A stretch of DNA of 64,000 nt from positions 356,624,001 to 356,688,000 of the forward strand of contig OZ024741.1 in NCBI GenBank assembly GCA_964016885.1, given 5' to 3'. Source of the stretch: Eledone cirrhosa (Eukaryota). How positions within the stretch are numbered: position 1 is the first letter of the stretch; every line of letters starts with the position of its first letter. The position numbers and the translations under genes were made by a program. Below are positions 6,476-48,257 of this stretch, piece by piece. Under the pieces are notes generated by a model. It saw nothing but the letters and a program-made list of their open reading frames with translations. It was not told the DNA's origin and ran no database searches.

Positions 6476-6702
6476 AACAGAGGAAAAATGAACTCTGAAA
6501 TAAAAAGCAATCTGGGAAATGTAAAAATGAAAGTTGAAAGTTCTCTCAGTCATATGCAAATTCAAAGAAATACTAGGTGACACCTAGGATGAGAAGTGGG
6601 AGATGGAGACTTCTAAGATAAAAAAAACAACTCAGAGTTTCTAAGAGATAATTTTCCATGAGACACAGATCAGACTTAGATTTCAGCAAGACAGAAAATG
6701 AC

Positions 6703-11587: not shown

Positions 11588-12428
11588 TATTTCTTTTATT
11601 TGCCACTAGGGCATCAAAAGTGGGACAAGTACAAAGGGGGGAGTTTACACAAAAAGGCGTCCTCAATAAGGAGGAGGCAATAACAAAATATAAAAATAAA
11701 ATAAGATATAACAAAAAATAAAATTTTTAACAAAATCCTCAATAGAGAGGAGGCGCCTTGGGGGGTCGCACACACCCCCGAAAAAAGTGTGCAACCCTTC
11801 TCCTCAGGAGCACAGAGAAGGGGTGCTCCCTTGGTCTTTCATCTTCCTCACCTATAGTCTGATGTAGAGTGAAGGCCCATTCACACGGGCCATTCTCGCC
11901 ACTTTCACCCATCTTTCATAGAAACGGCTGGGGTGCAGCACCTCTCTCTCCATCCTGATCCTTCTTCCGAAATGATATCGGAAGAAACGGACCAGTTGTT
12001 GGCCAGAGAGAAAGGTGCCCGACCTCAGTCCTTTCAGACGCGTCCACCATACAACCTCTTTCGCCATGGCTATTACGCACAGAAACACCGCCTCTGCTTC
12101 ATCTTTGAAGGGGGGAGGCGGCTTGATCATTACAATAGACTCGGTGGTCAACCGGATCGGTCCCACCCTTGACAGCAGTTGTTCGACATAGCCCCACAGA
12201 TCGGCTACGCCCGAGCAGTGTACTAATGCGTGTGCAACGGTTTCCTCGTCGCACACGCATCTGGGACAGATCTTTTTGGCGGGGTCCCTACCCGGGCGCC
12301 CGTGTCTGTAGAGCCTTTCTCGAACGGGTAAAGCCCCTCGGTAGCACTGCCAGGCCAGGGACTTCTGGAAGTTGTCCATAGGTCCCGGGCTGAATGTCCT
12401 ACCGAAAAGGCTGGCCAGTTCGTCCTCC
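11588..12428 (-). mobile_element. Second copy of the same Tx1-like element: 5'-truncated, with ORF2 stop and 3'UTR
   Basis: About 4 differences over about 460 bp shared with 7225-7684; ORF stop at 11852; 3'UTR ends AATAAAAGAAATA. Confidence 0.9.
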
Positions 12429-15400
12429 ATGGGATAAGTGGTAGAGTGTGGTAGAATAGATAGCGATGGGATAAGTGGTAGAGTGTGGTAGAATAGATAG
12501 AGATGGGATAGGTGGTAGAGTGTGATAGAATAGATAGAGATGGGATAAGTGGTAGAATAGATAGAGATGGGATAGGTGGTAGAGTGTGATAGAATAGATA
12601 GAGATGGGATAAGTGGTAGAGTGTGGTAGAATAGATAGAGATGGGATAGGTTGTAGAGTGTGGTAGAATAGATAGAGATGGGATAAGTGGTAGAGTGTGG
12701 TAGAATAGATAGAGATGGGATAGGTGGTAGAGTGTGGTAGAATAGATAGAGATGGGATAGGTGGTAGAGTTTGGTAGAATAGATAGAGATGGGATAAGTG
12801 GTAGAGTTTGGTAGAATAGATAGAAATGGGATAGGTGGTAGAGTGTGGTAGAATAGATAGAGATGGGATAAGTGATAGAGTGTGGTAGAATAGATAGAGA
12901 TGGGATAGGTGGCAGAGTGTGGTAGAATAGATAGAGATGGGATAGGTGGTAGAGTGTGGTAGAATAGATAGAGATGGGATAAGTGGTAGAGTGTGGTCGA
13001 ATAGATAGAGATGGGATGAGTGATAGAGTGTGGTAGAATAGATAGAGATGGGATAGGTGGTAGAGTTTGGTAGAATAGAGATGGGATAAGTGGTAGCGTG
13101 TGGTAGAATAGATAGAGATGGGATAAGTGATAGAGTGTGGTAGAATAGATAGAGGTGGGATAGGTTGTAGAGTGTGGTAGAATAGATAGAGATGGGATAA
13201 GTGGTAGAGTGTGATAGAATAGATAGAGATGGGATAAGTGGTAGAGTGTGGTAGAATAGATAGAGATGGGATAAGTGGTAGAGTGTGGTAGAATAGATAG
13301 AGATGGAATAGGTGGTAGCGTGTGATAGAATAGATAGAGCTGGGATAGGTGGTAGAGTGTGGTAGAATAGATAGCGATGGGATAAGTGGTAGAGTTTGGT
13401 AGAATAGATAGAGATGGGATAGGTGGTAGCGTGTGGTAGAATAGATAGAGATGGGATAGGTGGTAGAATAGATAGAGATGGGATAGGTGGTAGCGTGTGA
13501 TAGAATAGATAGAGATGGGATAGGTGGTAGAGTGTGGTAGAATAGATAGAGATGGGATAGGTGGTAGAATAGATAGAGATGGGATAGGTGGTAGCGTGTG
13601 ATAGAATAGATAGAGCTGGGATAGGTGGTAGAGTGTGGTAGAATAGATAGCGATGGGATAAGTGGTAGAGTTTGGTAGAATAGATAGAGATGGGATAGGT
13701 GGTAGCGTGTGGTAGAATAGATAGAGATGGGATAGGTGGTAGAATAGATAGAGATGGGATAGGTGGTAGCGTGTGATAGAATAGATAGAGATGGGATAGG
13801 TGGTAGAGTGTGGTAGAATAGATAGAGATGGGATAAGTGGTAGAGTGTGGTAGAATAGATAGAGATGGGATAGGTGGTAGCGTGTGGTAGAATAGATAGA
13901 GATGGGATAGGTGGTAGAGTGTGGTAGAATAGATAGAGATGGGATAAGTGGTAGAGTGTGGTAGAATAGATAGAGATGGGATAGGTGGTAGCGTGTGGTA
14001 GAATAGATAGAGATGGGATAAGTGGTAGAGTGTGGTAGAATAGATAGAGATGGGATAAGTGGTAGAGTGTGGTAGAATAGATAGAGATGGGATAAGTGGT
14101 AGAGTGTGGTAGAATAGATAGAGATGGAATAGGTGGTAGCGTGTGATAGAATAGATAGAGATGGGATAGGTGGTAGAGTGTGGTAGAATAGATAGAGATG
14201 GGATAAGTGGTAGAGTTTGGTAGAATAGATAGAGATGGGATAGGTGGTAGCGTGTGGTAGAATAGATAGAGATGGGATAGGTGGTAGAATAGATAGAGAT
14301 GGGAAAGGTGGTAGCGTGTGATAGAATAGATAGAGATGGGATAGGTGGTAGAGTGTGGTAGAATAGATAGAGATGGGATAGGTGGTAGAGTGTGGTAGAA
14401 TAGATAGAGATGGGATAAGTGGTAGAGTGTTGTAGAATAGATAGAGATGGGATAAGTGGTAGAGTGTGGTAGAATAGATAGAGATGGGATAAGTGGTAGT
14501 AGAGTGTGGTAGAATAGATAGAGATGGGATAAGTGGTAGAGTGTGGTAGAATAGATAGAGATGGGATAGGTGGTAGTGTGTGGTAGAATAGATAGAGATG
14601 GGATAGGTGGTAGAGTGTGGTAGAATAGATAGAGATGGGATAAGTGGTAGAGTGTGGTAGAATAGATAGAGATGGGATAGGTGGTAGCGTGTGATAGAAT
14701 AGATAAAGATGGGATAGGTGGTAGAGTGTGGTAGAATAGATAGCGATGGGATAAGTGGTAGAGTTTGGTAGAATAGATAGAGATGGGATAGGTGGTAGAA
14801 TAGATAGAGATGGGATAGGTGGTAGCGTGTGATAGAATAGATAGAGATGGGATAGGTGGTAGCATGTGATAGAATAGATAGAGATGGGATAGGTGGTAGA
14901 GTGTGGTAGAATAGATAGAGATGGGATAAGTGGTAGTAGAGTGTGGTAGAATAGATAGAGATGGGATAAGTGGTAGAGTGTGGTAGAATAGATAGAGATG
15001 GGATAGGTGGTAGCGTGTGGTAGAATAGATAGAGATGGGATAGGTGGTAGAGTGTGGTAGAATAGATAGAGATGGGATAAGTGGTAGAGTGTGGTAGAAT
15101 AGATAGAGATGGGATAGGTGGTAGCGTGTGGTAGAATAGATAGAGATGGGATAGGTGGTAGCGTGTGGTAGAATAGATAGAGATGGGATAGGTGGTAGAG
15201 TGTGGTAGAATAGATAGAGATGGGATAAGTGGTAGAGTGTGGTAGAATAGATAGAGATGGGATAAGTGGTAGAGTGTGGTAGAATAGATAGAGATGGGAT
15301 AAGTGGTAGAGTGTGGTAGAATAGATAGAGATGGGATAAGTGGTAGTAGAGTGTGGTAGAATAGATAGAGATGGGATAAGTGGTAGAGTGTGGTAGAATA

Positions 15401-18400
15401 GATAGAGATGGAATAGGTGGTAGCGTGTGATAGAATAGATAGAGATGGGATAGGTGGTAGAGTGTGGTAGAATAGATAGAGATGGGATAAGTGGTAGAGT
15501 TTGGTAGAATAGATAGAGATGGGATAGGTGGTAGCGTGTGGTAGAATAGATAGAGATGGGATAGGTGGTAGAATAGATAGAGATGGGAAAGGTGGTAGCG
15601 TGTGATAGAATAGATAGAGATGGGATAGGTGGTAGAGTGTGGTAGAATAGATAGAGATGGGATAGGTGGTAGAGTGTGGTAGAATAGATAGAGATGGGAT
15701 AAGTGGTAGAGTGTGGTAGAATAGATAGAGATGGGATAAGTGGTAGAGTGTGGTAGAATAGATAGAGATGGGATAAGTGGTAGTAGAGTGTGGTAGAATA
15801 GATAGAGATGGGATAAGTGGTAGAGTGTGGTAGAATAGATAGAGATGGGATAGGTGGTAGCGTGTGGTAGAATAGATAGAGATGGGATAGGTGGTAGAGT
15901 GTGGTAGAATAGATAGAGATGGGATAAGTGGTAGAGTGTGGTAGAATAGATAGAGATGGGATAGGTGGTAGCGTGTGATAGAATAGATAGAGATGGGATA
16001 GGTGGTAGAGTGTGGTAGAATAGATAGCGATGGGATAAGTGGTAGAGTTTGGTAGAATAGATAGAGATGGGATAGGTGGTAGCGTGTGGTAGAATAGATA
16101 GAGATGGGATAGGTGGTAGAATAGATAGAGATGGGATAGGTGGTAGCGTGTGATAGAATAGATAGAGATGGGATAGGTGGTAGAGTGTGGTAGAATAGAT
16201 AGAGATGGGATAAGTGGTAGTAGAGTGTGGTAGAATAGATAGAGATGGGATAAGTGGTAGAGTGTGGTAGAATAGATAGAGATGGGATAGGTGGTAGCGT
16301 GTGGTAGAATAGATAGAGATGGGATAGGTGGTAGAGTGTGGTAGAATAGATAGAGATGGGATAAGTGGTAGAGTGTGGTAGAATAGATAGAGATGGGATA
16401 GGTGGTAGCGTGTGGTAGAATAGATAGAGATGGGATAGGTGGTAGCGTGTGGTAGAATAGATAGAGATGGGATAGGTGGTAGAGTGTGGTAGAATAGATA
16501 GAGATGGGATAAGTGGTAGAGTGTGGTAGAATAGATAGAGATGGGATAAGTGGTAGAGTGTGGTAGAATAGATAGAGATGGGATAAGTGGTAGAGTGTGG
16601 TAGAATAGATAGAGATGGGATAAGTGGTAGTAGAGTGTGGTAGAATAGATAGAGATGGGATAAGTGGTAGAGTGTGGTAGAATAGATAGAGATGGGATAG
16701 GTGGTAGCGTGTGGTAGAATAGATAGAGATGGGATAAGTGGTAGAGTGTGGTAGAATAGATAGAGATGGGATAAGTGGTAGTAGAGTGTGGTAGAATAGA
16801 TAGAGATGGGATAAGTGGTAGAGTGTGGTAGAATAGATAGAGATGGGATAGGTGGTAGCGTGTGGTAGAATAGATAGAGATGGGATAAGTGGTAGAGTGT
16901 GGTAGAATAGATAGAGATGGGATAGGTGGTAGCGTGTGATAGAATAGATAGAGATGGGATAGGTGGTAGAGTGTGGTAGAATAGATAGAGATGGGATAGG
17001 TGGTAGAGTGTGGTAGAATAGATAGAGATGGGATAAGTGGTAGAGTGTGGTAGAATAGATAGAGATGGGATAGGTGGTAGCGTGTGATAGAATAGATAGA
17101 GATGGGATAGGTGGTAGAGTGTGGTAGAATAGATAGAGATGGGATAGGTGGTAGAGTGTGGTAGAATAGATAGAGATGGGATAAGTGGTAGAGTGTGGTA
17201 GAATAGATAGAGATGGGATAAGTGGTAGAATAGATAGAGATGGGATAAGTGGTAGTAGAGTGTGGTAGAATAGATAGAGATGGGATAAGTGGTAGAGTGT
17301 GGTAGAATAGATAGAGATGGGATAGGTGGTAGCGTGTGGTAGAATAGATAGAGATGGGATAGGTGGTAGAGTGTGGTAGAATAGATAGAGATGGGATAAG
17401 TGGTAGAGTGTGGTAGAATAGATAGAGATGGGATAGGTGGTAGCGTGTGATAGAATAGATAGAGATGGGATAGGTGGTAGAGTGTGGTAGAATAGATAGA
17501 GATGGGATAAGTGGTAGAGTTTGGTAGAATAGATAGAGATGGGATAGGTGGTAGCGTGTGGTAGAATAGATAGAGATGGGATAAGTGGTAGAGTGTGGTA
17601 GAATAGATAGAGATGGGATAGGTTGTAGAGTGTGGTAGAATAGATAGAGATGGGATAGGTGGTAGAGTGTGGTAGAATAGATAGAGATGGGATAGGTGGT
17701 AGCGTGTGATAGAATAGATAGAGATGGGATAGGTTGTAGAGTGTGATAGAATAGATAGAGATGGGATAGGTGGTAGAGTGTGGTAGAATAGATAGAGATG
17801 GGATAAGTGGTAGAGTGTGGTAGAATAGATAGAGATGGAATAGGTGGTAGCGTGTGATAGAATAGATAGAGATGGGATAAGTGGTAGAGTGTGATAGAAT
17901 AGATAGAGATGGGATAAGTGGTAGAATGTGGTAGAATAGATAGAGATGGGATAAGTGGTAGAGTGTGGTAGAATAGATAGAGATGTGATAGGTTGTAGAG
18001 TGTGGTAAAATAGATAGAGATGGGATAGGTGGTAGAGTGTGGTAGAATAGATAGAGATGGGATAAGTGGTAGAGTGTGGTAGAATAGATAGAGATGGGAT
18101 AAGTGGTAGAGTGTGGTAGAATAGATAGAGATGGGATAAGTGGTAGAGTGTGGTAGAATAGATAGAGATGTGATAGGTTGTAGAGTGTGGTAAAATAGAT
18201 AGAGATGGGATAGGTTGTAGAGTGTGGTAGAATAGATAGAGATGGGATAAGTGGTAGAGTGTGGTAGAATAGATAGAGATGGGATAAGTGGTAGAGTGTG
18301 GTAGAATAGATAGAGATGGGATAAGTGGTAGAGTGTGGTAGAATAGATAGAGATGGGATAGGTGGTAGCGTGTGATAGAATAGATAGAGATGGGATAGGT

Positions 18401-19283
18401 GGTAGAGTGTGGTAGAATAGGTAGAGATGGGATAAGTGGTAGAGTGTGGTAGAATAGATAGAGATGGGAGAGGTTGTAGAGTGTGGTAGAATAGATAGAG
18501 ATGGGATAAGTGGTAGAGTGTGGTAGAATAGATAGAGATGGGATAAGTGGTAGAGTGTCGTAGAATAGATAGAGATGGGATAAGTGGTAGATTGTGGTAG
18601 AATAGATAGAGGTGGGATAGGTGGTAGCGTGTGGTAGAATAGATAGAGATGGGATAGGTGGTAGCGTGTGGTAGAATAGATAGAGATGGGATAAGTGGTA
18701 GAGTGTGGTAGAATAGATAGAGATGGGAGAGGTTGTAGAGTGTGGTAGAATAGATAGAGATGGGATAAGTGGTAGAGTGTGGTAGAATAGATAGAGATGG
18801 GATAAGTGGTAGAGTGTGGTAGAATAGATAGAGGTGGGATAGGTTGTAGAGTGTGGTAGAATAGATAGAGGTGGGATAGGTGGTAGCGTGTGGTAGAATA
18901 GATAGAGATGGGATAGGTGGTAGCGTGTGGTAGAATAGATAGAGATGGGATAAGTGGTAGAGTGTGGTAGAATAGATAGAGATGGGAGAGGTTGTAGAGT
19001 GTGGTAGAATAGATAGAGATGGGATAAGTGGTAGAGTGTGGTAGAATAGATAGAGATGGGATAAGTGGTAGAGTGTGGTAGAATAGATAGAGGTGGGATA
19101 GGTTGTAGAGTGTGATAGAGTAGATAGAGGTGGGATAAGTGGTAGAGTGTGGTAGAATAGATAGAGATGGGATAGGTTGTAGAGTGTGATAGAGTAGATA
19201 GAGGTGGGATAGGTGGTGGAATAGATAGATATGTGGTAGAGTGCGGTAGAATAGATAGCTATATGGTAGAATAGATAGAGATA
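12429..19283. repeat. 37-bp satellite, block 3 (about 6.9 kb)
   Basis: Same monomer with 27-bp and 40-bp variants; degenerates at the right end. Confidence 0.97.
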
Positions 19284-20459
19284 TAAGAACTAAGAGACAA
19301 GCCTTGGAAAAGTGGAAGAAATGAAAGCAAAGAACATCAAATAACTAGATGAGAAAGTAGGGAAGTGAAATGAAAGAGATTTGCATATATGTATTCTGCA
19401 TTGTGATAAGAGGCATACAGTGTTCTGTGTGTGCAGCATAGCAGCAGCTCTCAATAACACTGAGCAGCAAGAAGCCATTGAAATGTTATTATGAGAAATT
19501 ATTGAATGGGGAGAATGCAGTAAGAGAATACTTACTCTAAGTAGAACCAATAATTTGTTAGCTATTCTGTTGAAGTTATGGAGGCCAGGAAATAACTGCT
19601 GGACCATTAAGGTTTGTCACTAAGTTGAATATATCTGGCAAAGTAGGCCAAGCACTAGCCACTCATAATACAATGAGCACTAAGTGCCATACCCAATGAT
19701 TGGTATAACAATATCATTGTCAATTGCTACAAGGGTTTAGAAGATGTAGCTACAGAGGCATTAAATTGATGTATCAGTTTATGAATGTTAGTGAAAGTGT
19801 TGTCATACAACTGATTAGGAAGAGTATTAGATTAGGTGCATTTTATCTTCTTGGTGAAACAACTACAAGAGAAGTACTAGGCTGGAAGTAAGCTACTCTA
19901 CCTAACATTTATCGAACTTGAGAAGGCCTTTGACAAAGTTACATAATCTGTGGTCTGGTGGTCATTAAGAAAATTAAGGGTAGACAAATTGCTTGAGAGA
20001 TCCATACAGACCATATTTAATGGTACCATCAGCAAAGCGAGAGTTAACAATGAGTTTAGCAAGGAATTTAGAGTACAGACTATTATACATCAGGGCTCAG
20101 TTAATTCTCATGACTAAGTCAATCAAAGATTTAGAGAGGACATTCGAAACTGTGATGCAAAACCTACAAAAGATGAGTAAAAAATAGAGTGTCAGGAGAA
20201 AAACCACTCATAGAAATATATTTATTTGTATGAGGAACAATACATGCAGTGTATTAGGTGTGGAAACATCTAATACACTTAAGGATTAAGGGAACATCAT
20301 ATAACCTGGAGCAGTACATGTAGTGTATAAGGTGTGGAAACAAACAGCCTAGAAAAACACCATAACCTGGAATAATTTATTTTATCAACCGCATAAGGAT
20401 GAAAGGCAAAGTTAACCTCGGCAGGATTTGAACTCAGAACGTAAAGGGCCGTAACTCTA

Positions 20460-28130: not shown

Positions 28131-29859
28131 TCTTGAATAATCGTTCCCAGTAAATTTTGCTAATCTATCTCCGGCGAAATTTATTGCAAATGATTCATAT
28201 CGATACAGCAGCAGGAGAATCTGATAATAATTTTATTTTACCTTAAAAAACATATGACAAAAAAAGAACATTACAAGAAATCCCATATTTACGAACTATA
28301 ATTACCGCCCCGAAATATGGTTAATGAAGTGTTTCAATTATTTTGGTGAAAGTATATAGCCTCATGGTTACAGTTGATGATCTTAAAATCAAGTGACATG
28401 AGCAACAGACTTCAGTTCACTCAGCTGGGGGTTAACCCTATGACAGACAGGTGTCCTGTCCAGAAGAGAGTCATCTCCTTAGTCACTTAACTCCCATGAG
28501 ACTGGGATAAATTCTGGACTTCATCCAACCCATGCAAGCATGGAAAAATGGACATAAAACAAAAATTCTAACTTTTAGATTATTTTGATGACGATCCTGA
28601 TGGTGGCAGTGGTGCTTTTCTTTGCTTGTATCTACCTTTTTACAACTGTTGCAACAATACATCTATATATAAATTTGAGCGACTTCCATCTGTCACAATG
28701 AATCTGTGTAAAAGGAAGAAAAGGGGGGGGGGGGGTTTAAAAAGCTATAACAGAACAGCGGTTGGTGTTTCATTTGCTATGCTGTGTGTGTTTTTGTAAA
28801 TGTATGTGTTTGTGTGAATGTATGTCTGTGTATTTATGTAAATGTGTCTGTGTTTGTGCATTTATATTTATATACTCATACATATAAATGTATGCATATG
28901 CACATACACACATGCACACACATATACACATACTCGTCATCATGTTGAAAAGAATTCTAGTGTATAAAACTACAACAACCAGTAACTGTTTCAAAAAGCC
29001 ATTTTTCCTGCTAAAGCAGAGGTTAGTTTTGCAGGACCCATGACAGTTTTATATTAATCATAGGGCCCTTTTTGAAGCAATCTTTTACAGCTGAATTGCC
29101 CTTCCTGGTAGCAGCTTTTTTGGTCGCTTCTAATAATATATGATGTAACTATTCTAATCTGGATTTAATATTTTACAGAGAAATCTCATATGGTTGTATA
29201 ATATCACAATCGCAGAAAAGGACTCCTTTACATAATGCCATTGCACTAAAGGAAATGGTTGAGTAAATGATGCAGAAATATATTGAAATAAAGTATATTG
29301 TTTTTATTCTGCTTTGGGAGAAGACATTTAATGTTTCTTATTTAAACTGGCCATATCTGGCCGGAATTCTTTCACCTCTTTCTGTTCAAACCGGCCTTAA
29401 CCGGCTGCTCATACTGATGTTAAGGTATTGTTCTCAAAATAAATAATATCAAAATCTCATAGATTCGATATTATGTGAGGTAAGGCCTTTACTGCAAAAA
29501 TACAATAGTAAATATAGAGTAATGTAAATGCTAAAGGTTAAAGCATTTGTGTTTAAAAATTATATAATTGTTTCTACTTTTGGCACAAGGCCAGCAATTA
29601 TCCCAGTGTATTAGTGGTACTTTATTTTATCGACCCCGTAAGGATGAAAGACAAAGTTAACCCTGGCAGGATTTGAACTCAGACCATAAAGGGCCGTAAC
29701 TCTTTGCTGCAAAGCATGGCATCTGACCCTCTTCTGATACTGCCAATCCACCACCCTTATATAATGTTTATGATTTACAAAAGAAAGGAAAAAAAGGGAG
29801 AAGACATGTACTCTACAACAGAGAATATTGATGTTCCCCTCTAAACATTTTTGAGGCAA

Positions 29860-30010
29860 ACCAAGACACAGCATTACTGCAGATGATAGCGGGGCTAAGG
29901 CACAGGAATAGCCAAACACCCTCATGAGCATCACCTAATATTTCAACATGGTAAACTGCCAGTGATGACAAAAAGTTCATTGTCAGAAGCCCAACCCCAC
30001 AAAACGTCAC
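29860..30010 (-). mobile_element. Old CRE-like 3' remnant (related remnant on + at 61650-61830)
   Basis: NFLSSLA..GDAHEGVWLF..AIICSNA here; KFLSSLA..DDAREGAWLFQ..ITCGNA at 61650-61830. Confidence 0.5.
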
Positions 30011-30090
30011 ATGATTTCTTATTTTGGAGATATCAATTGACATTGTGCTTTTTTCTTTTTCTTTTCAGCTTTAATTTTAATATTTTAGTC

Positions 30091-33000
30091 ATGGGTGGAA
30101 TGAAGAGAACACCAAAACCAAATAAGAAAATGACTAAAGAAGTAAAAGAAGTATCTACTAAAACGAAGTTATATAAAGATACTGAACATGAGAAACTTTC
30201 CCAAAGGCTACTTTTAAAACCAGAAGAAAGTTTTAATGATTCTAATGATTTTAAAACACCTGAGAGAAAGAGTAATACATGTAGATCTAGACTCCGTAAT
30301 CAATCTGATTGTATAAAAATTAATGAACCATGGAGAAATGAAGCTGCATTGATAAAAAAATATACAAAACAAAGCATCACATCCGTAGAGTCTATAACGA
30401 AAATGCATTCCGAAACACCCAGGAAAAGTACAAGAAAATCTTCTCAATCCCAAAATGAAAATTCTCCTTTGAAAAATGCTACATCATCACCTCATAAATC
30501 TGACAAAAGGAATTTATCTCAGACAAATATCATAAAACCTATCAAGTCTTCCAGTAAACAACATAAAAATAACAAAAGCAATATAAATTCCAAACAAAAG
30601 ACTTCTGATTCTGATAAGAAATCTGTTGAGAAAACATTGTTATGTAGTCAACAAGCTTCCAAGTTTAGATCGCCTAAAAGTCAAAATTTGTCTGGATCAA
30701 TACAGTATTCGGGTAGTAGTTCTTCTTTGTCTGGAAAGATAACAGCTGGAAGTCCATGTGAGTCCTCAAAATTTATTAAAGATGAAAATTCTTCTTGTAC
30801 TTCAGAGGAAGAATTTGAAACATCAAGTAACTGTGGAACTTATTTGCGAAAAAGAAGAAAAATCTGTTATAAATTTAATGAGAAAGATTCTGAAACACAT
30901 GTTCCCACTGTTTTATCTTCCCATATTCCTACTATTACATCTTCACATGTTCCCTCTGTTATGTCTTCACATATTCCCTCTGTTACATCTTCACATATTC
31001 CCTCTGTTACATCTTCACAGTTTCTCACTACTACATCTTCACAGATTCCTACTATTACATGTTCACATGCTCCCAGAGTTACATCTTCAAAGTTTCCCAC
31101 TATTACATCTTCACAGTTTCCCACTATTACATCTTCACAGATTCACGCTGTTTTATCTTCACATATTCCCTCTGTTGCATCTTCACATGTTCCTACTGTT
31201 ACATCTTCACATGTCCCTACTATTACATCTTCACATGTTCCCATAGTTACATCTTCACATATTCCTACTGTTACATCTTCATATGTTCCCTCTATTACAT
31301 CTTCACAGATTCCCTCTATTACATCTTCACAGATTCCCACTATTATATCTTCACATGTTTCCACCATTACATTTTCACATATTCCCACAGTGGCATCTTC
31401 ACATATTTCTGTTGAAGCAGAAGTGAATATAGAAACAGGATTCAACCACAAGCAAAATAAACCAAAATCTGACGATTATTTTAATGAGATTCAAATGAGG
31501 AAGTGTCCCACGTGTAAAGATGATTTTCCCAACCTAATATTTAATGAGCATGTGCTACAGTGTCTTAAGGAACAGTTTCAATCATCCACCTATGGGCCTC
31601 TTAACACTAAAACAGGGCACAAGCAAATATCTCAAGATGAACGATTAGCTCAAAAGTTACATGCAGAACTTAATAAAAATGTCCTAATAGATAATGCTTC
31701 TCTAGAATCTGACAAAGTACTATGTTGTATATGTAAAACAGAATTAACTCATTTGAACTCATTACAAAGAACTCAGCATATCAACACATGCCTTGACCAA
31801 TCAGAATCTGCAAAGGCCCATGACACTTCCCCAGAATCTGTTGTAATTTGTCCGATGTGTGGACAGCAATTCAATTCTTTTTCTTTAAGAGAGAATCATT
31901 TCAAAACTTGTACAAGAGATAAATTTGTTGCCCCTAATCAATCCAGCAGGTCGACTACAAACAAAAAGCAGTTGAAAAGTAGAACAACATCCAATTCCAA
32001 AAAGACTCCTGATGACCAACTTCAGCTAGCATTAGCTATGTCTAATTCTCTTCAAGAAGAACAAAACAAACAGGAAGAACAATTAGGCCGATATATTCAG
32101 AATATTAAAAAAAACGTTTTTAAAGAGTTGAAGCATCAGAAAAATAAACAACTTCCATTATTAGTTACATTAACAACTGAAGAACGCCAATCTGTCCATG
32201 CAGAAAGAGTTGCTGGTATTATAAATGAAAATTTTGAAAACGTTCCCTCAACTAAAAGACATAAATATAGCTCATTAGCTTCAACACAACCAACAAATCT
32301 ATGGTTAAAATCTTCACTCACGCAGACAGATTCTTCGAAACTTCCTTTCTATGTGGATTCATTGGTACCCCCCATTAAAATAGATATTGTTAACATGGGA
32401 GATCAATTGAAACATTTATCTAAAAATACTGGAAATGTTATTAGTCAAAATACAACTAATTCTGCTAATGAAGAAGAGAAGCAACAATTAATAGAACCAA
32501 GTCAAACTGCTCTTATCTTAGCTGAGTTAGCAAATGATAACAAAACTCCCACTAATTCATGTCATACTCCTGTTGAACATATATCACCAAATTTTCAGAC
32601 AGAAGCATATAAAGAGAATTCATCAGGTATATTAACATCTTTAAGTACAGATTTTTGTAGATTAGTAAATAATCCTAGTTTTAGTGATATTCAGTTTATG
32701 ACAGCCGAAGGAATTAAAGTTTTTGGACATAAAATAATTCTTCAAGCTAGATGTCCCAATATTTTAAATAGAATTTCTACTCAACTTCTAACACCCACTA
32801 TTAACTTGAGTGAAGTATCTTATGACACATTGTTGGCATTTCTCAAGTACATTTATGCTGGACAGTTAAATATAGATGAAACTCAGGCAAACAGCTTAAA
32901 GATATTATCATGGGAGCTTGCAATACCAGAATTATTTCACGCTTGTGAGAAACTGCTTAAAAAAAGTGTAATTCATAGCCAGCAAAATTCAGGTTTTTGT

Positions 33001-36000
33001 CCATCTCCTCTAGCAACAGTTGATAGTATGATTAATTATTTACTTGAAAGCTCAGATGAAGATCTTGAAACTAGAAAAAGTGTTTCAGAAAAACCCAGTT
33101 GTGATCCCGAAAATTGTCGAAATAGTAGCCAGTCCACTTTAACAAATGATTCTTTCAAATGTCAAAATTCTAGAAATTCGTCTCCATATAATAATTCACC
33201 TTTAACAATTATTCCACAATATTCTCCAAATGGAAATTCTAATGACATTGGAAACAATTTGGATCGTTTAACAAATGTGCCTGTATCTTCTCAACTTGGT
33301 GCATCTACTGAATTGTCTGAAATATGCTGTGATAATCAACCAAAGAAACCATTCTCTAATTATCAAAGTGGTAATTATAGTAGTAAACCATGTACGGCTA
33401 ATACATTGCAACAAAAGTCTCTCTCACACTTTACTTCACAAAATATACCTCATTCGCCACAGAAGTTTGAAAAATGTTTGGTGGTAAATGAGAATGCTCT
33501 CCCTTCATTCACAGCCTCTGTACCTGGTTCTGTTAATTTAACTAACAATTGCAATAATAATTCTTTAATTAAAGAGCAATGCCAATTAATTGACTCTGAT
33601 GAAATAAGAGATTTTTCTCCAATTGACTTTATTGATGAATCTTTTAACCATTCCATATACTCTTCACCTCTAACTGGTCCTACTTGTGATGGTATGGTAA
33701 CACCTAAAAAGAAAGATATTAATGATAACAGTAGAGAAAATGTAAGTGATAATATGTTAAATATAAGTGATGATCTGTCAAATATTTCTAAGGAATTATT
33801 TAGTGAAGATGAAGACCTAGAAAATGTTAGTAACAATAAAACCTGTATTCAGTATAGTTTTGATAGCCAACATGAATACACATCACCTCATCAAATATTG
33901 AAAACTGTATCTCCTTGCCATAATGAAAATAAAGCAAATTTTTCAAGATATTACTACTCTACTCCTGCAACTATCTCCCTTACTAAAGACAGAGACCAGA
34001 TAAATAATAATAATGTTACAGCTAAATGTATAATATCCAGTGATGAATCGGAAAAAGGATTTGTTTCTGCAGAGACTGATACTAATTTAAGAGAGAATTT
34101 TGATTACCTGAATTCTTATTCTCCAGTTTTTCCCAAAACTCAAGAATTGAAAAAAACAAATACAAACCTAAATGAAAACCAGCCAAAGACTTCTTCACAA
34201 AATCAGTCAGGGACGTCTTCACAAAACCAATATAAAAAAAGAAAAAGATGCTCTCTGTCTTTCTCACCATCAAAAAGAAAGAAAGTTGAAACAGACAAGA
34301 GTACTCATTTAAATTTATATGAAAGTTCTTCAATTCTAAATTTAGATGAGGCGTGTTGTTTAGAAACAAAGAAAAAAGAGAGATTTTCACAAAAGTCTTC
34401 TTTAAATTCCTCAGGTAATTTCTATAATGAGAGGGGCAATAAAGAATGCCTATCAAAATCTAAAAAAAATATTGTTACACCTAAAGATTTTCATGAAAAA
34501 GCCCATCAGTGTGAAAGTGAACTTGATGTAAGTAGGGATACACATAGTGAGATTTCTGGGACAAACAATCTCCAAATAAGCCCTAAACAATCTAAGAATT
34601 CTAAAACAAATAAAAAATCAGCTAAAAGTTTTTCTCCTATGAGTAATTCATGTTCTGAAAATGATGGAATAATAATTTATGAAAAAAGCTATAATGCTGA
34701 TGACACAGATGAAATACCTAGTAGTCAACAGCTCAGTGAAGACATTTTTATTAATAAATTGAATAGTTTTATTCAGAATAACTCTGACTTATATAGAAAA
34801 ATACTCCTGTATGAACCACTTGAATTTGATGTTTTGAAAAAAAAACTTAAAGACTCTAATATAAAATGTCCAGCTAATAAACTACTTGAATATTTAGAAA
34901 ACCAGTGTATAACATTTGTTCATAGCAAAGATAAACAGGTTAGAAAACGGTCACATGGCGTATCTTCTAGAAGAAAGAAAGTTAAAGAGAAAGTTGAAAC
35001 AGAAGAAACAAAGGAAGAAGAGATATTTTCAAAAAAGTCTTCTTTAAATTCCCCTGATAATTTATATAATGGTAAAGAATTGAAGAAATTTAGACAGTTT
35101 AGCAATGAAATGTATGATGTGGAAACATCAAATTTAAGAGAACTTCCTCAAAACATTTCAGATGATTATCGACCAGGAAAGAATGAAAAACCAAAGAAGC
35201 AATTTACTTTCAAAAAAATTACCAAGAAACCTTCAGTTTATAGTTCAACAGAAAATTTAAATGTAGATACCATAAATTCTGACTGTCTTGTGAAACCATT
35301 TCCTAAATCTTCAGCTTCTGATGACAAACTTCCAAATAGTGAAAACAGTCGATCAAATGCTGGTCTCAATGAAAGCATTTGGGAACATTTTTATGATGAT
35401 CCTATTGATGATGCAGTGATAATAATTTCCCCAGAATGTTCATATTCAAAAGTTACTTTCAACCCAAGTAAAGATAAACTAGATTCATTTCTTCTTTCCC
35501 CTTCCCCTCCTCCTCCTCTCTCCCCCCCACTTCTACTTTCCCCTCCTCCTCCACCTTCCCCTCCTCCTCCACCTCTTTCCCCTCCACCCCCACCTTCCCA
35601 TCCTCCTCCTCTTTCCCCTCCACCCCCACCTTCCCATCCTCTTTCTCCACCACCTCCCTCTTCTCCCCCTCTTCTACATTATGAACATCACTCTTCAACA
35701 CATGATTCTTCTTATGCAAGTATTGTTGATGATGTAGAACATTTGTTTAGACAAGAATCTCTATATAATCCTAATTTATCTGGTTCATTTGGAAATGACA
35801 GTCTGAGAGTGAAACCTAATGTTAAAGAAACATTTAACACTCCAGTAAACAAGCGCCAAACAAAATACTGTGGAAAAGAACAAAGTAGTCCATCCCCGTT
35901 TACTCCGATGCCAGATTATGAAAGTATGTCAACACCTGGTTTAAAAAAAGAGATGAAGAAATATGGTTGCAAAGCAAGACCTAAAAAAAATATGGTTAAA

Positions 36001-36519
36001 TTTCTTAAAGATATCTTTACAAAAACCCATCAGTATAAAAGTGATAGTGAACTTGATATAAGTAGAGTTAGTGGGATTTCTGGGACAAATAATCTCCAAA
36101 TAAGCCCTAAACAATTTAAGAATTCTAAAACAAATAAAAAATCAGCTAAAAGTTTTTCTCCTATGAGTAATTCAAGTTCTGAAAATGATGGAATAGTAAT
36201 TTATGAAGAAAGCTATATTGCTGACGACACAGATGAAATACCTAGTAGTCAACAGCCCAGTGAAGGAATTCTTATTAATAAATTGAATAGTTTTATTCAG
36301 AATAACTCTGACTTATATAGAAAAATACTTCTGTATGAACCACTTGAATTTGATGTTTTGAAGAAAAACCTTAAAGACTCTAATATAAAATGTCCAGCTA
36401 ATAAACTACTTGAATATTTAGAAAACCAGTGTATAACATTTGTTCATAGCAAAGATAAACAAGATAGAAAATGGTCAAATAAAAGATCTTACAAAGCAAA
36501 AAGAGGCAGAAAAGTGTGA
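30091..36519 (+). CDS. SLX4: Structure-specific endonuclease scaffold SLX4 (BTBD12/FANCP/MUS312 family), single coding exon, about 2142 aa
   Basis: Open frame with the SLX4 domain order: UBZ-type fingers (CPTC..EHVLQC ~31504, CCIC..QHINTC ~31723, CPMC..NHFKTC ~31849), MLR start DDQLQLALAMSNSL (~32011), BTB FSDIQF..GHKIILQARCP (~32660-32960), SIM-like motifs, SAP TPMPDYESMSTPGLKKEMKKYG (~35900), SLX1-binding LYRKILLYEPLEF..LLEYLENQCITF (twice). ATG 30091 follows a polypyrimidine/CAG acceptor ending 30068, so the GTG start at 29962 is not preferred. Confidence 0.92.
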   Translation: MGGMKRTPKPNKKMTKEVKEVSTKTKLYKDTEHEKLSQRLLLKPEESFNDSNDFKTPERKSNTCRSRLRNQSDCIKINEPWRNEAALIKKYTKQSITSVESITKMHSETPRKSTRKSSQSQNENSPLKNATSSPHKSDKRNLSQTNIIKPIKSSSKQHKNNKSNINSKQKTSDSDKKSVEKTLLCSQQASKFRSPKSQNLSGSIQYSGSSSSLSGKITAGSPCESSKFIKDENSSCTSEEEFETSSNCGTYLRKRRKICYKFNEKDSETHVPTVLSSHIPTITSSHVPSVMSSHIPSVTSSHIPSVTSSQFLTTTSSQIPTITCSHAPRVTSSKFPTITSSQFPTITSSQIHAVLSSHIPSVASSHVPTVTSSHVPTITSSHVPIVTSSHIPTVTSSYVPSITSSQIPSITSSQIPTIISSHVSTITFSHIPTVASSHISVEAEVNIETGFNHKQNKPKSDDYFNEIQMRKCPTCKDDFPNLIFNEHVLQCLKEQFQSSTYGPLNTKTGHKQISQDERLAQKLHAELNKNVLIDNASLESDKVLCCICKTELTHLNSLQRTQHINTCLDQSESAKAHDTSPESVVICPMCGQQFNSFSLRENHFKTCTRDKFVAPNQSSRSTTNKKQLKSRTTSNSKKTPDDQLQLALAMSNSLQEEQNKQEEQLGRYIQNIKKNVFKELKHQKNKQLPLLVTLTTEERQSVHAERVAGIINENFENVPSTKRHKYSSLASTQPTNLWLKSSLTQTDSSKLPFYVDSLVPPIKIDIVNMGDQLKHLSKNTGNVISQNTTNSANEEEKQQLIEPSQTALILAELANDNKTPTNSCHTPVEHISPNFQTEAYKENSSGILTSLSTDFCRLVNNPSFSDIQFMTAEGIKVFGHKIILQARCPNILNRISTQLLTPTINLSEVSYDTLLAFLKYIYAGQLNIDETQANSLKILSWELAIPELFHACEKLLKKSVIHSQQNSGFCPSPLATVDSMINYLLESSDEDLETRKSVSEKPSCDPENCRNSSQSTLTNDSFKCQNSRNSSPYNNSPLTIIPQYSPNGNSNDIGNNLDRLTNVPVSSQLGASTELSEICCDNQPKKPFSNYQSGNYSSKPCTANTLQQKSLSHFTSQNIPHSPQKFEKCLVVNENALPSFTASVPGSVNLTNNCNNNSLIKEQCQLIDSDEIRDFSPIDFIDESFNHSIYSSPLTGPTCDGMVTPKKKDINDNSRENVSDNMLNISDDLSNISKELFSEDEDLENVSNNKTCIQYSFDSQHEYTSPHQILKTVSPCHNENKANFSRYYYSTPATISLTKDRDQINNNNVTAKCIISSDESEKGFVSAETDTNLRENFDYLNSYSPVFPKTQELKKTNTNLNENQPKTSSQNQSGTSSQNQYKKRKRCSLSFSPSKRKKVETDKSTHLNLYESSSILNLDEACCLETKKKERFSQKSSLNSSGNFYNERGNKECLSKSKKNIVTPKDFHEKAHQCESELDVSRDTHSEISGTNNLQISPKQSKNSKTNKKSAKSFSPMSNSCSENDGIIIYEKSYNADDTDEIPSSQQLSEDIFINKLNSFIQNNSDLYRKILLYEPLEFDVLKKKLKDSNIKCPANKLLEYLENQCITFVHSKDKQVRKRSHGVSSRRKKVKEKVETEETKEEEIFSKKSSLNSPDNLYNGKELKKFRQFSNEMYDVETSNLRELPQNISDDYRPGKNEKPKKQFTFKKITKKPSVYSSTENLNVDTINSDCLVKPFPKSSASDDKLPNSENSRSNAGLNESIWEHFYDDPIDDAVIIISPECSYSKVTFNPSKDKLDSFLLSPSPPPPLSPPLLLSPPPPPSPPPPPLSPPPPPSHPPPLSPPPPPSHPLSPPPPSSPPLLHYEHHSSTHDSSYASIVDDVEHLFRQESLYNPNLSGSFGNDSLRVKPNVKETFNTPVNKRQTKYCGKEQSSPSPFTPMPDYESMSTPGLKKEMKKYGCKARPKKNMVKFLKDIFTKTHQYKSDSELDISRVSGISGTNNLQISPKQFKNSKTNKKSAKSFSPMSNSSSENDGIVIYEESYIADDTDEIPSSQQPSEGILINKLNSFIQNNSDLYRKILLYEPLEFDVLKKNLKDSNIKCPANKLLEYLENQCITFVHSKDKQDRKWSNKRSYKAKRGRKV
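30895..31410 (+). repeat. Coding 24-bp minisatellite in SLX4, about 21 copies of TSSH(I/V)P(S/T)(V/I)
   Basis: ACATCTTCACATATTCCCTCTGTT-type units, in frame. Confidence 0.92.
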
Positions 36520-38029
36520 TTTACTTGTAATAAAATAAACAAATTTTAACATAAAAATTTGTAAATTTTCAACATTTTTTCCCATTTGTTCTTTTGGGAA
36601 TATTGTTTTGGACCAATTAATTTTATATATAATCAAAGATGCCATTTTAATCCATGTAACACTATTTTTTACTTTTCAGAGTAAATAGGTTAAGAAAGCA
36701 TTCAGTCCTGACTATGTAAAAGAGTCATGCTGGTGCCTTCACAAAAGGATACAGTCCATCCTGTAAAAAGATCATGCTGGTGCCTTGACAAAAGCACACA
36801 GTCCATCCTGTAAAAGGGTCATGTTGGTGCTGTGATAAAAGCACACAGAAAAGGCTCTTCAAATTACCACATCCATTGATTTGTTTTTGTTCACAAATAT
36901 ATATACATATAATTTCATTACAATTGTATTGAAGTATATTGTTGAAAATGCATTTTAATGATTATGTGTAATAAAATTTCAATATTAAACTTATATTCTT
37001 ATAAAAAAAAATCTGATTTTATATTTAACTTTTTTTATATAAAAAAAACCTGAAACTGCTTGTTTTAAGATGTTTATATTTATCTGAAAACTTTCCATCC
37101 TAATTCTGTGTAAGAACCTTTGTTATGTTCCAAACATCAGCTTAATAATTAGAAAGTTGGTTATATTACTCAATTTCTCCAAATTCTTGATTGTTTTCAA
37201 AATTATTTAAGAATTAGAGACAAAATATGGTAAGGAAAGAGTTAAATTCTAAGTAGCATATAGCTCAAGTGTCAAGTCAAACTAACAAATGACTGTCTTA
37301 ATTGCAGTCAAAGCCATTTAATATCTTTTGTACCAATAATAACCTTGAGACATCACAAGTATCTGTTTACTTTCTCGGGTTAAAACAAGTGTTTTAACAC
37401 TTTAGCATTGCAGTATCGGTAGAGGGTCGGACGTCATGCTTTGCAGCATAGAGTTACGCCCCTTTACGGTCTGAGTTCAAATCTCACCGAGATTAACTTT
37501 GCCTTTCATCCTTACGAGGTCGATAAAATAAAGCACCAGTAATGCACTGGGATAATTGCTGGCCTTGTCAAAAATTAGAAACACATTCATTTACTATTGT
37601 ATTTTCACAGAAAAGTCTTTATCTTATATAATCATCTCACACAATATTGAATCTACAAGATTTTGATGTTATTTATTTTGAGAACAATACCTTAATGTAG
37701 GTATGAGCAGCCAGATACGGCCGGTTTGAAAAGAAAGAGGTGAGAGAGTTCTGACCGGATTCGACCAGTTTAAATCCTAAAGGATTAAGACCATTTCTCC
37801 TGATAAGGCAGGAATTAGCCGTGCAGGCCTTATGGCAGACTTCATACACATCTTGGAGTCCTTTTTGAGGCAATGCCTTGAAATGTGTGTATCTCAATGC
37901 AAAAGACAATAATAATAATTGATAATAGTTGAGAAAATTGAGTAAAGTATTCCTGGAAATGGGGAAAAGTGGACAGAAGTGGCTGTGAGGAATGGAATTG
38001 TTGGGATGCACACATTTCAAATTTCATTG

Positions 38030-40500: not shown

Positions 40501-41156
40501 TATTTTGGAAAAAGAAAGTTATTTATAAAATATATAATGCCTTTTAATTACAATATATTTTGAATTTTTGTTTATATTTACTTTCATTAATCAAATATAA
40601 TTGTAAATTGTTCAATTAAAATTGCCTACATTCAGCATGTTTGCAAACTCTATATTAATCTTTGGCGATGAAAGCTTTAAGAAGTTTACATAAAAACCTT
40701 TTCAATATAAGTATAACATAAAAATTCATTTTTGTCTCTTCACATATAAAAAGAAGAAAAGAGATAGATATCATCAGGAATTATATATATATATAGAGAG
40801 AGAAAAAAAAAGAAAGAGAGATAGATAAAACAAAGAAAGAAAAGGGAAAAAGATATATATATATATATATATATCTTTTTCCCTTTTCTTTCTTTGTTTT
40901 ATCTATCTCTCTTTCTTTTTTTTTCTCTCTATCTTTATTATTAATATTATTAATGATGCTGTAATTTGAATTTGTAAATTTAACGGATATATTGTAGTTA
41001 TCTCCGATGATCTGGTTAAGCTAAATCATATTTGAAATTGAGTGGCACTGCTTCTAGTGTTCACCAACTTCTAGACAACTTAATCAGTGAAACAATTGTC
41101 AGACTGTAAATAAATCCTTTTTTTTTTTGTACTGTTGACCATGTTATCACTTATTC

Positions 41157-44950: not shown

Positions 44951-47900
44951 ATCATCATCATCATCATCATCATCATTTTACGTCCGCTTTTCCCTGCTTG
45001 CAAGGGTGGGACGGGTCTTATTCAGCACAGCATCTCTCCACTCGTCACGGTCCCTTGTCATCTCCACCGTGAGCTTCAATGATCTGAGGTCTGTTCTCAC
45101 CACCTCCGCCCATGTTTTTCGTGGTCTACCTCTACCACGTCTTCCTTCAACTAGCAATTCCTGGCACTTCTTCACCCATCGGTCATCCTCCATGCGCATC
45201 ACATGTCCATACCACCTCAGTCTCCTCTCCCGTACACTACATTCTATCCCTCTCAGACACAGTTTCTCTCTCAACACATTTATGCTGGGTTCACGCACAT
45301 TTACACTGCACATCCAACGGAGCATGCTTGCCTCATTTCTCTCCAGCTGTCGCATATCCTCTGCAGTTACTGCCCATGTCTCACTACCATGCAGCATCGC
45401 GCTCCTCACACAGGCATCATACAACCGGCCTTTCGTACGCAGGGAGAAACCCTTCTTCGTCAACAGAGGAAGCAGCTCTCTAAACTTCTTTCAACCCGTC
45501 CTTATTCTAGATACTATGGCCTCGGAACACCCTCCTCCCATGCTAATCTGATCTCCTAGGTACCGGAAGCTATCCACCACTTCTATAGCGCCCTCCTGCA
45601 TTTGAAAAATGTGTCTATCAATGCGACTTCTACTGTCTAATTTCCCTGTACATCTACTGCATACATATTTCTCCCTACCTGTTAGTTTGCCTGCTATCCC
45701 GCTACATCTCTTGTGTACCCAGGATCTGCATTGTGTGCATTTTATAGAATTTATGCCAGTTCCTTTTCTGCATATCGAACATGGCCATTTCCCTGACGGA
45801 ATCAGGGTTTTGTCCTCTTTTCTACTCATCAACACTTTTGTCTTAGCTAGAATCACTCTCAGTCCTCTTGCTTCCAACTGCTGTTTCCATAGCCAGAATT
45901 TATTCTCTAGCTTCTCTACTGATTCTGCTATAAGAACCAGATCGTCAGCATAGAGAAGTTCCCGTGGACAGCCAGTCTTAAACTCCTCTGTTATGGCTTG
46001 GAGGACTATAATGAACAAGAGCGGACTGAGGACCGAACCCTGATGTACTCCTACTTGTATCTGGAATTCCTCACTAAACAGCATTCCTACCCTGACTTTA
46101 CTGAGAGTACTTCTGTACAAAGTTTGCACTGACCTCACAAGCCATCCCTCAACACCTAGCTTCCTTAGGGACCACCAGATGACAGATCAGGGTACCCTAT
46201 CAAAGGCCTTCTCTAGGTCATCAAAGGCCTTCTCTAGGTCAACAAAGGCTAAGTATAGTGGCTTATTCTTCTCTAAGAACCTCTCTTGCAATTGTCTCAC
46301 CAAGAAGAGGGCATCTGTTGTACTCTTCCCAGGCACAAAACCAAACTGCATCTCATCTAGTTTGACCCTTTCTCTAATTAGTTGTGCTAAAATCCTTTCT
46401 GCCACTTTCATAACCTGATCTATCAGTTTTATACCCCTATAATTGCTCCTCTCCAAAGCATCCCCTTTACCTTTGTAGCAATTTATGAGAATACTGCTGC
46501 ACCAGTCTTTGGGTATGACACCACCATATATAGCCTGATTGATGATGCGTGCAACCAGTTTAGTGCCTACGTCCCCTGATGCCTTCAGCATCTCAGCAAC
46601 TATTCCCGATGGTCCGGCAGCCTTACCATTTTTCATTTCCCTAATCGCCTCTTGGACCCTATATTCGTCAATCTCAATAGCTGGTCCCTCTGTCGGATCT
46701 ACCAAGGATAATTTCTCTCTCTCCCATTCGTTCTCCACATTCATCAGTCTCTCATAATGACATTTCCAGGCCTCCTTTTTCTGATCATTCGTGACACTAA
46801 GTACACCGGCATCATCCCGGACACATTTATCTCCAACAACATCCTGATTTGCATTGACACACTGCCTTGCAATGTGGAACACCACACGCCTCTGATCTTC
46901 CCATCGCAGAACATTGGCAAACCTCCTACTCTCTGCCTCCCTGTGTGCTAAGTACACCTGACGTCTAGCTTCTCTCTTAGTGGCTGTATATTCTTCCCCA
47001 CTCCCACCCTTTTTCCAAGCCTTCCATACTAGTCTTTTGTCTCTAATAGCCTTATCTACTGTGCTGTTCCACCACCAGGTCACTCTCTGTCTGGTTGGAG
47101 CTCTGCTCCAGCCACAGGTTTCATCAGTAGCCTGCAGCAAGTTGTCATGTAAGAAATTCCAGTTATTATCTATGTCATACGTCTCTAAATCGTCTTCTTT
47201 TTCGTCATATACATCTTGAAGGGCTTTCCTAAATTTGTATTTTAGTGAAAGGTCTTTTAGCTTCCAGACCTTTCTTCTCCACACCTTCTTATATGTCTCA
47301 TTCCATCTGTTGCTTACTGAGATATCACTAACGACTAACCTGTGCTGTGGGGTACATTCTTCCCCAGGGTATGCCTTGGTATTAGACACTATCTGCCTGT
47401 CCCGCTGCCTAACTAGCAAGAAGTCAATCTGGCTTATGTGCTCACCAGATTTGTAGGTTATTAGGTGATTGGCAGGTTTCTGGAAGTTTGTGTTGCAAAT
47501 AGTCAATGTACCCGCATCACAAAATTCAAGAAGTCTCACTCCTTCTTCATTTCTTGAACCGTAACCGTGCCCACCATGAACCCCAGTGTAACCATCCTGG
47601 AGCTGTCCAACATGACCATTGAAGTCGCCTGCTAGCATAACGATGTCTCCGTCCTCTGTCATTGCGGTTGTTTGCAAAAGTTGCTCATAAAAGCAGTCTT
47701 TCTCATCTTTGCCTGGGCCTGCTTGAGGCGCATAGGCCGAGATGATTGTCAGTAGTCTCCTACCTACAACTAATCTAAGCTTAATTATTCGATTACTAAC
47801 TCGAACTACCTCTATTGTCTTATTGATCCATTTCTCAGCCAGGAAAATGCCTACTCCCCCTAGCCCATCATCCTTACCTACCCAGAATAGCTTATAGCTA

Positions 47901-48257
47901 AGACGCTTGCCTACGACTAGTCTCGCAGAGGCACCTCTCCATCTCACCTCTTGCACGCAGCACACATCCACTTGCCTTCTCTCCAGCATCTCCGCTATTT
48001 CAGCAGATCTACCTCTGAGAGTGCCAACATTTAGTGTTGCAACTCTGAGATGCGACGTCTTCATATTTTGTTGTTCCTATTTGTTGCTGTGCTGATAAGC
48101 GTTTTGGCATTGATACACTGGTTGGATGCCCTTCCTAACACCAGCGCCACTTTACAGCACGGACTGGGTGCTTTTATTTGTGCCACCAGCACTAGAGAGG
48201 ATGTCTTACTAGACTCAAGGGCCCTCTCTACCCCTCCATTTTACAGCATGGTCATTA

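Follow-up and report, generated by a model that had tools for sequence, protein, structure and literature searches.

SLX4 is described as a scaffold that ends in one SAP domain and one CCD (PMC8287910, PMC8599992), the CCD being the SLX1-binding domain (SBD). According to PMC4407285, the CCD alone forms a 1:1 active complex with Slx1 and displaces the inactive Slx1 homodimer, while the yeast SAP adds DNA binding and cut-site accuracy, and its loss lowers both the efficiency and the accuracy of cutting (PMC8287910). The human SAP is reported to switch between binding DNA and binding MUS81 (PMC13171448), human SLX4 dimerises via its BTB domain, which gives two SLX1 sites per dimer (PMC8599992, citing Yin et al. 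2016), and mouse cells need both SLX1 and MUS81 tethered (PMC3808987). Here we describe the SLX4 gene of the octopod Eledone cirrhosa, in a stretch of 64,000 nucleotides (assembly GCA_964016885.1, contig OZ024741.1, positions 356,624,001 to 356,688,000 of the forward strand; hereafter the window, in whose numbering all coordinates are given), which encodes two SBDs in a single chain. The reading that we favour, with a probability of roughly 0.6, is that the internal, SAP-less SBD (copy A) would be a working second dock, which loads, stabilises and activates an extra SLX1 on a long, probably flexible tether, in addition to the terminal SBD (copy B).

The octopod protein shares with metazoan SLX4 (human SLX4/FANCP/BTBD12, mouse Slx4) the order BTB, SAP, terminal CCD, and keeps the Cys that is needed for SLX1 binding (PMC3808987). 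In contrast to these proteins it has a second CCD 445 amino acids upstream of the terminal one, with only a SAP remnant before it, and its coding sequence is one open frame; mammalian SLX4 comes to two SLX1 sites only via BTB dimers, in the account of PMC8599992. The fungal Slx1-Slx4 CCD complexes (PDB 4XLG, 4ZDT, 6SEH/6SEI, 7CQ2-4) resemble it in the helical CCD fold, which is predicted for the octopod domains (Z 8.2-10.4), and in the contact positions Y679/F681/G716, which map to L/Y/C, but they have one CCD per chain in a 1:1 complex, and the position of Asp737 is Glu in the octopod. A SAP-less CCD is also active in vitro in the fungal system (PMC4407285), although there it is an engineered fragment, whereas in the octopod it is a natural module. 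The plant SLX1-lineage nuclease At-HIGLE likewise brings two SLX1-type active sites into one particle, as is predicted for the octopod case, but it self-dimerises without SLX4 and its paired nicks were shown, whereas any pairing in the octopod would come from the scaffold (PMC9071465). The two-SBD SLX4 is, as judged from these comparisons of predicted proteins, a variant of a known scaffold, lineage-wide among the sampled octopods. By title and abstract, none of the papers found reports a two-CCD SLX4, subscription papers and supplements being outside this search; the SBD pair can already be read from publicly available Octopus protein annotations.

Two SLX1-binding domains in one reading frame

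In the frame list of the window, a stop-free frame extends from 29899 to 36519, and from its first suitable Met (30091) it encodes an SLX4 of 2142 amino acids (Table 1). Pfam Slx4 (PF09494) gives two matches in this frame, both copies being over the cut-off of 24.8 and together reaching 102.8 bits, and BTB gives one. The intact SAP lies directly upstream of the terminal CCD, as is characteristic of the SLX4 scaffold, and is present in one copy: a SAP profile built from 82 sequences scores it at 76.4 bits, versus -3.1 bits for the remnant before copy A. The segments 34454-34956 and 35975-36480 are 90.2% identical (BLASTN, 512 columns, 3 gaps, offset 1524), and between their 63-codon cores (34750-34938 and 36274-36462) there is a single amino-acid difference (K/N), along with three synonymous changes, of which the third is the last Gln codon. 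All indels between the duplicated blocks lie upstream of 34540, at the SAP remnant. A second repeat pairs 34362-34429 with 35004-35071, with 88% nucleotide identity.

These results bear out an earlier sequence-only reading of the window, which had described two paralogous in-frame blocks, a broken SAP tail before copy A and a motif FSxKSSLNS that occurs twice. It had counted one amino acid and two synonymous differences between the cores, the first figure being right and the second one short; it had also placed both indels and additional substitutions in the linkers, which do carry more non-synonymous change than the cores (see below), but not the indels.

In a profile search of the species' own 3.0-Gb genome the only SBD matches were the two copies in the window. 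No second, intron-containing SLX4 locus was found there, although exon-split genes can escape such searches.

Predicted fold and SLX1-contact residues

The AlphaFold model of 34420-36516 contains three confident islands, namely copy A (model residues 101-172), the SAP and copy B, while the rest is of low confidence (pTM 0.25), including the SAP remnant (pLDDT <50). Model residues 103-169, in copy A, superpose on 4ZDT_B (VIA-align Z 10.3, rmsd 2.3, 67 aligned) and on 6SEI_B (Z 8.8), copy B superposes on 7CQ3_B (Z 10.4), and the SAP is 51% identical to the human SLX4 chain in 7BU5. For the diverged internal copy of Octopus bimaculoides the model has a pLDDT of 83.5 and TM-scores of 0.69-0.79 to yeast CCDs, and the top 9 Foldseek rows are all Slx4 CCDs, every E-value being above 0.001. 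Both window copies and the O. bimaculoides internal copy model as the helical CCD fold, in predictions that drew on SBD alignments, which favours this fold. No packing is seen among copy A, SAP and copy B in the model, from which DNA and partners are absent.

In Candida Slx4, residues Y679 and F681 reach into Slx1, while G716 is the counterpart of mouse C1536 (PMC4407285), whose change to Arg abolishes SLX1 binding and SLX1 stability (PMC3808987). The octopod equivalents of these three positions are L, Y and C (columns 23, 25 and 57), both in the two window copies and in three Octopus-type internal copies. The corresponding codons of copy A are at 34804, 34810 and 34906, and a fourth contact position, E, is at 34897. 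The Octopus-type internal copies retain the helix-2 aromatic (Candida F681) and the Cys (mouse C1536); the Argonauta internal copy has lost the aromatic. Through the ends of the structural alignments, column 54 corresponds to yeast Asp737, a residue that hydrogen-bonds Slx1 (PMC8287910).

Distribution and age of the double SBD

Of 15 homologue matches, 12 were scanned with Pfam, and two Slx4 stretches were found in four of them (O. bimaculoides, O. sinensis, P0003 and Argonauta hians), all octopods, the remaining eight (seven fish and one other) having a single stretch. Two more O. sinensis isoform models and one O. vulgaris model also contain both SBDs, so that the pair is present in 7 of 7 octopod database models. 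When the SBD profile (9 sequences, four of the nine rows octopod) was searched against 1.84 billion cluster representatives, 726 matches were obtained with E up to 0.001, and among the best 150 a real second SBD occurs only in the octopod cluster. With its last entry at 67.9 bits, this list of 150 would include any protein that carries two copies of about 34 bits each; clustering at 50% identity hides cluster members. Two proteins with two stretches in the profile list, P0129 and P0132, have no second SBD (2.3 and -0.1 bits). Named gastropods and bivalves have one SBD each, as do the sister protein P0103, perhaps from a squid or cuttlefish, and its full-length cluster members, in a homologue sampling without named squid, cuttlefish, cirrate or Nautilus SLX4. 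In the A. hians protein (P0004) the internal SBD, residues 1467-1535, is without Y-x-P and T-F, and the terminal copy is canonical. The O. vulgaris model P0021 (4293 amino acids) fuses a stoned-B-like protein to SLX4, probably through a merge of neighbouring genes, and its stoned-B-like part has no tblastn match in the window.

The tree of the non-duplicated region has the topology (P0103,(Argonauta,(window, three Octopus proteins and P0003))), with supports of 98/97, 100/100 and 96/94, all starred, and a grouping of Argonauta with Octopus to the exclusion of the window species is rejected (approximately unbiased (AU) test, p=0.037). In the tree of the duplicated unit, the Octopus-type and Argonauta internal copies form one clade (94/92, not starred) in which the Argonauta branch is long, and the two copies of the window pair together (80/97). 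The distance between motif block M1 and the HQ of the SAP remnant is 35 amino acids here and 37 in four relatives (the Argonauta anchor points being picked by eye from the alignment), against 273-332 in the intact unit. In the window and in three Octopus-type proteins, the blocks on either side of copy A are homologous (score reached by 0-2 of 300 shuffles); in Argonauta such homology is not detectable (score reached by 140 of 300). These results come from direct alignments, self-BLASTP having given no off-diagonal matches.

From these alignments, the simplest history has a single duplication and a single deletion, both before Argonauta split off. A tandem duplication would have copied the block motif M, spacer, SAP, linker and SBD; a later deletion would have cost the first copy its spacer and most of its SAP. 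The spacing, the SAP profile and the block homology thus support the C-terminal tandem duplication, with subsequent loss of most of the first SAP, that had been suggested from the window alone. An independent duplication in the window lineage is disfavoured by the common deletion spacing and by the species tree, and the evidence against a separate one in Argonauta is marginal (AU p=0.059). Since argonautid fossils are 29 Ma old (PMC7104719), the duplication would be at least about that old; no cirrate is among the samples, which leaves its age without an upper bound. Comparison with orthologues therefore dates it as old and common to the sampled incirrate octopods.

Probable gene conversion between the copies

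The cores of copies A and B are identical at 62 of 63 residues in the window, at 43-45 (68-71%) in the Octopus-type proteins and at 31 in Argonauta, and the flanks of the window's internal copy are orthologous to those of the other internal copies. The near-identity of the window copies is, on this pattern, most likely due to gene conversion after the old duplication, which would have re-homogenised about 500 bp of both copies in the window lineage. Octopus-type A and B can be told apart at 46 sites. Of these, the two window copies share the B state at 15, the A state at 11 and some other state at 9, and much of the A-type share may be no more than ancestral. At column 54, 148 of 149 single SBDs and every other terminal copy have Asp, but the Octopus-type internal copies and the two copies of the window have Glu, which hints, from one site, at a transfer from A to B.

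Apparent selection on the internal copy

The proportions of non-synonymous (pN) and synonymous (pS) differences between the copies are 0.0066 and 0.081 in the core, and 0.074 and 0.061 in the linker. Non-synonymous changes are found at 1 of 152 core sites versus 12.5 of 169 linker sites (Fisher p=0.003), while the synonymous rates (3 of 37 versus 2.5 of 41, p=0.66) are not different. With one copy free of constraint, about 5.4 replacements would be expected in the core, compared with the 1 observed (P(1 or fewer)=0.025-0.03). Because the linkers drifted neutrally while the SBD cores kept a low pN, both copies appear to have been constrained since their homogenisation. At 21 conserved columns, each window copy has 3 rare states, as compared with 3-4 in Octopus-type internal copies and 2-4 in terminal copies. 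The selection test, the conserved columns and the predicted CCD fold lend support to the earlier suggestion that the internal SBD is probably functional.

Several observations weigh against a working internal dock. The selection test rests on four core differences, and its numbers are small. The Argonauta internal copy has 9 rare states at the 21 conserved columns, with Y25, P27, T59 and F60 lost (Asn at column 25, Ser at column 27), and this SBD is probably decaying naturally; as contact residues are lost there, at least one lineage would be able to do without the internal site. In comparisons between Octopus-type proteins, the conservation of core A is not significantly above that of linker A (84 vs 79%, p=0.51, and 81 vs 76%, p=0.54) and is below that of core B (94%; p=0.06 and 0.15), which puts the internal copy under weaker constraint. 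The near-invariant Asp at column 54 (yeast Asp737) is Glu in both window copies, a change that is presumably tolerated, because the genome's only terminal SBD also has Glu there. Finally, a tree in which window copy A is forced into the clade of internal copies is not rejected by the AU test (p=0.108), and the argument for conversion therefore rests on identity, not on the tree.

SLX1 and other resolvase genes in the genome

SLX1 is present in the same genome as four exons with open frames on contig C25, and no extra SLX1 was found, although, as above, exon-split genes can escape such searches. MUS81, XPF-like and two GEN1-like loci are also present. The best match of the ERCC4 exon is MUS81. 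The GEN1-like loci are L017/L018/L022 (G000 C11) and L012/L013/L023 (G000 C2), and stand besides XPG-, FEN1- and EXO1-like loci; in XPG-family searches human GEN1 is the best PDB match of the C11 exon, while XPF and the C2 GEN1-like locus are what we take these loci to be from their motifs. A GEN1 chromodomain profile found nothing in the genome, where its controls were equally blank. The idea that the second SBD compensates for a lost resolvase was rejected, since MUS81 and two GEN1-like loci were found. In another database protein, P0032 of Frankliniella fusca (876 amino acids), 5'-nucleotidase domains are joined to SLX1, possibly by an annotation merge.

Proposed role of the second dock

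The reading of copy A as a functional second dock follows from the activation of Slx1 by the CCD alone in other species. Each chain would hold two active SLX1 but one SAP, and a BTB dimer four SLX1, if dimerisation is conserved. The terminal SLX1 would do its usual work beside SAP and MUS81, whereas its internal counterpart, independent of SAP and uncoupled from MUS81, would serve as a nicking arm with lower site accuracy, which would raise SLX1 dose and avidity without being a partner held in fixed geometry. A natural two-dock scaffold, with one dock SAP-less, that was kept for at least about 30 million years would amount to an experiment on SLX4 stoichiometry and on the contribution of SAP to SLX1. 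The octopods also provide a comparative series: the two copies match in this species, have diverged but are intact in Octopus, and in Argonauta include an internal one that has decayed, while the sister lineage has just one. The window also seems to offer a clear example of gene conversion within a gene after which selection can be seen. The result is only moderately surprising, because proteins often duplicate internal domains and the mammalian SLX4 dimer is already bivalent.

The alternative that survives best, although we consider it doubtful, is that the internal SBD is a relic, retained only through its place in an essential single-exon frame and occasionally refreshed by conversion from the terminal copy, and that any SLX1 binding is incidental. 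Conversion evidently occurred in the window lineage, and the relic explanation would also account for the decay of key contact residues in Argonauta and for a copy A core that is not significantly above the linker between Octopus-type proteins; in addition, the excess of A-vs-B identity in the Octopus core (68-71% vs 37-42%, p<0.001) is partly expected from constraint on B alone. However, conversion would also wipe synonymous differences, yet the core has a pS of 0.08 with a pN of 0.007. Moreover, the Octopus-type internal copies, without recent conversion, have 3-4 rare states, as few as the terminal copies (4), and the SAP remnant beside copy A did decay.

It is unlikely, in our estimate, that the two SBDs act on one Holliday junction so that SLX1 and SLX1 make both nicks, as a self-sufficient resolvase like At-HIGLE, whose dimers cut twice within one binding event (PMC9071465). 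A single-chain, two-headed SLX4 would then be a MUS81-independent resolvase in which conversion keeps the docks matched, with Argonauta as a natural revertant, and an A-to-B fragment would test whether the number of nucleases on the scaffold decides between nicking and resolution. Two intact docks are predicted in cis, and the long spacer could span both sides of a junction. On the other hand, the 445-residue spacer is predicted to be disordered and the three domains unpacked (pTM 0.25), the SAP is intact and 85-98% conserved in the octopod alignment, and there is no lost resolvase to replace. The human BTB dimer already holds two SLX1 sites, yet mouse cells need MUS81 (PMC8599992, PMC3808987). 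Given the MUS81 and GEN1-like genes and the bivalency of human SLX4 through BTB dimers, a coordinated SLX1+SLX1 resolvase is less likely than a SAP-less second dock. Of the bivalent resolvase scaffold first proposed for this locus, the two SBDs per chain stand, while the resolvase is weakened by these same genes and BTB dimers and by the disordered spacer.

We find it improbable that the copies serve different isoforms, either through early termination, which would give the SAP-less truncated protein that the sequence-only reading had envisaged, or through an intron that removes copy A. Together with one pyrimidine-rich acceptor at 35314, the donor-like motifs at 34528 and 34547 could delimit an in-frame intron of 768 nt, but GTRAG motifs are in any case scattered through the exon, at 0.8 per kb. 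There is no in-frame stop and no AATAAA/ATTAAA between 34901 and 36132, and the octopod database models all keep both domains, the three O. sinensis models differing only in an N-terminal repeat. An assembly artefact, which the 90% identity of the copies might suggest, is refuted by the same layout in independent assemblies of four named octopod species and in P0003, and by 22 mismatches in 34540-34956, with a longest identical run of 92 bp and differences sorted by codon effect.

Other features of the gene and of the window

Table 1. Coordinates of SLX4 features in the window
Feature	Position	Strand	Evidence
SLX4 coding sequence, single uninterrupted frame, 2142 aa	30091..36519	+	Frame and Pfam; Met aligns with Octopus and Argonauta protein starts
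BTB/POZ domain (aa 859-959)	32665..32967	+	Pfam PF00651, E 1.3e-11
Motif block M1 (FSxKSSLNS), front of first duplicated unit	34362..34429	+	88% nt to 35004-35071
Degenerate first-SAP tail; PFTPMP start and helix 1 gone	34454..34510	+	SAP profile -3.1 bits; pLDDT <50
Linker A	34540..34749	+	Neutral drift vs linker B, pN 0.074, pS 0.061
Internal SLX1-binding domain (SBD/CCD copy A), predicted	34750..34938	+	Pfam Slx4, AlphaFold island, fold match
Spacer, predicted disordered: hybrid basic tail, M2, single-copy region, poly-proline tract	34939..35889	+	
Motif block M2, within spacer	35004..35071	+	88% nt to M1
Poly-proline tract, within spacer	35497..35670	+	
Single intact SAP domain	35890..36036	+	PDB 7TUJ, 7BU5, E ~1e-10; 7BU5_B fold Z 7.3
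Linker B	36064..36273	+	Codon comparison with linker A
Terminal SBD/CCD (copy B), canonical position	36274..36462	+	Pfam; Z 10.4 to 7CQ3_B

The SLX4 coding sequence is one 6.4-kb frame, whereas SLX1 in the same genome has at least 4 exons and vertebrate SLX4 has many coding exons; octopod SLX4 may for this reason be a retrocopy that replaced its parent. A pyrimidine tract and AG at 30068-30069, before the frame, resembles a splice acceptor. CxxC..H..C motifs are visible in a region that is 57-73% conserved across octopods and gives a weak Pfam zinc-finger match (E 0.68); these may correspond to the UBZ4 zinc fingers and the MLR (XPF-binding) region of metazoan SLX4. At 30890-31400 a 24-nt tandem array encodes about 21 copies of an 8-residue Ser/Thr/His/Pro unit, which is also found in Octopus, and the three O. 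sinensis isoform models differ by 16 or 32 amino acids inside this array. The poly-proline insertion has 37 Pro in 58 residues and is absent from four other aligned octopod proteins.

Inverted dispersed repeats at 29340-29743 and 37410-37775 flank the SLX4 exon, with arms of 140 and 159 nt that are 85-88% complementary, and are probably common interspersed elements. A large simple-sequence satellite with a G-C skew near 0.97 occupies 6600-19300, and embedded in it is a LINE-like frame for a reverse transcriptase, on the minus strand within 6676-11595, along with another fragment of this frame. An endonuclease/reverse-transcriptase retrotransposon frame, broken near 46186, lies on the minus strand at 45491-48076. 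A hairpin that consists of purine/AT simple repeats lies at 40770-40957; its 94-nt arms are 88% complementary and enclose no loop.

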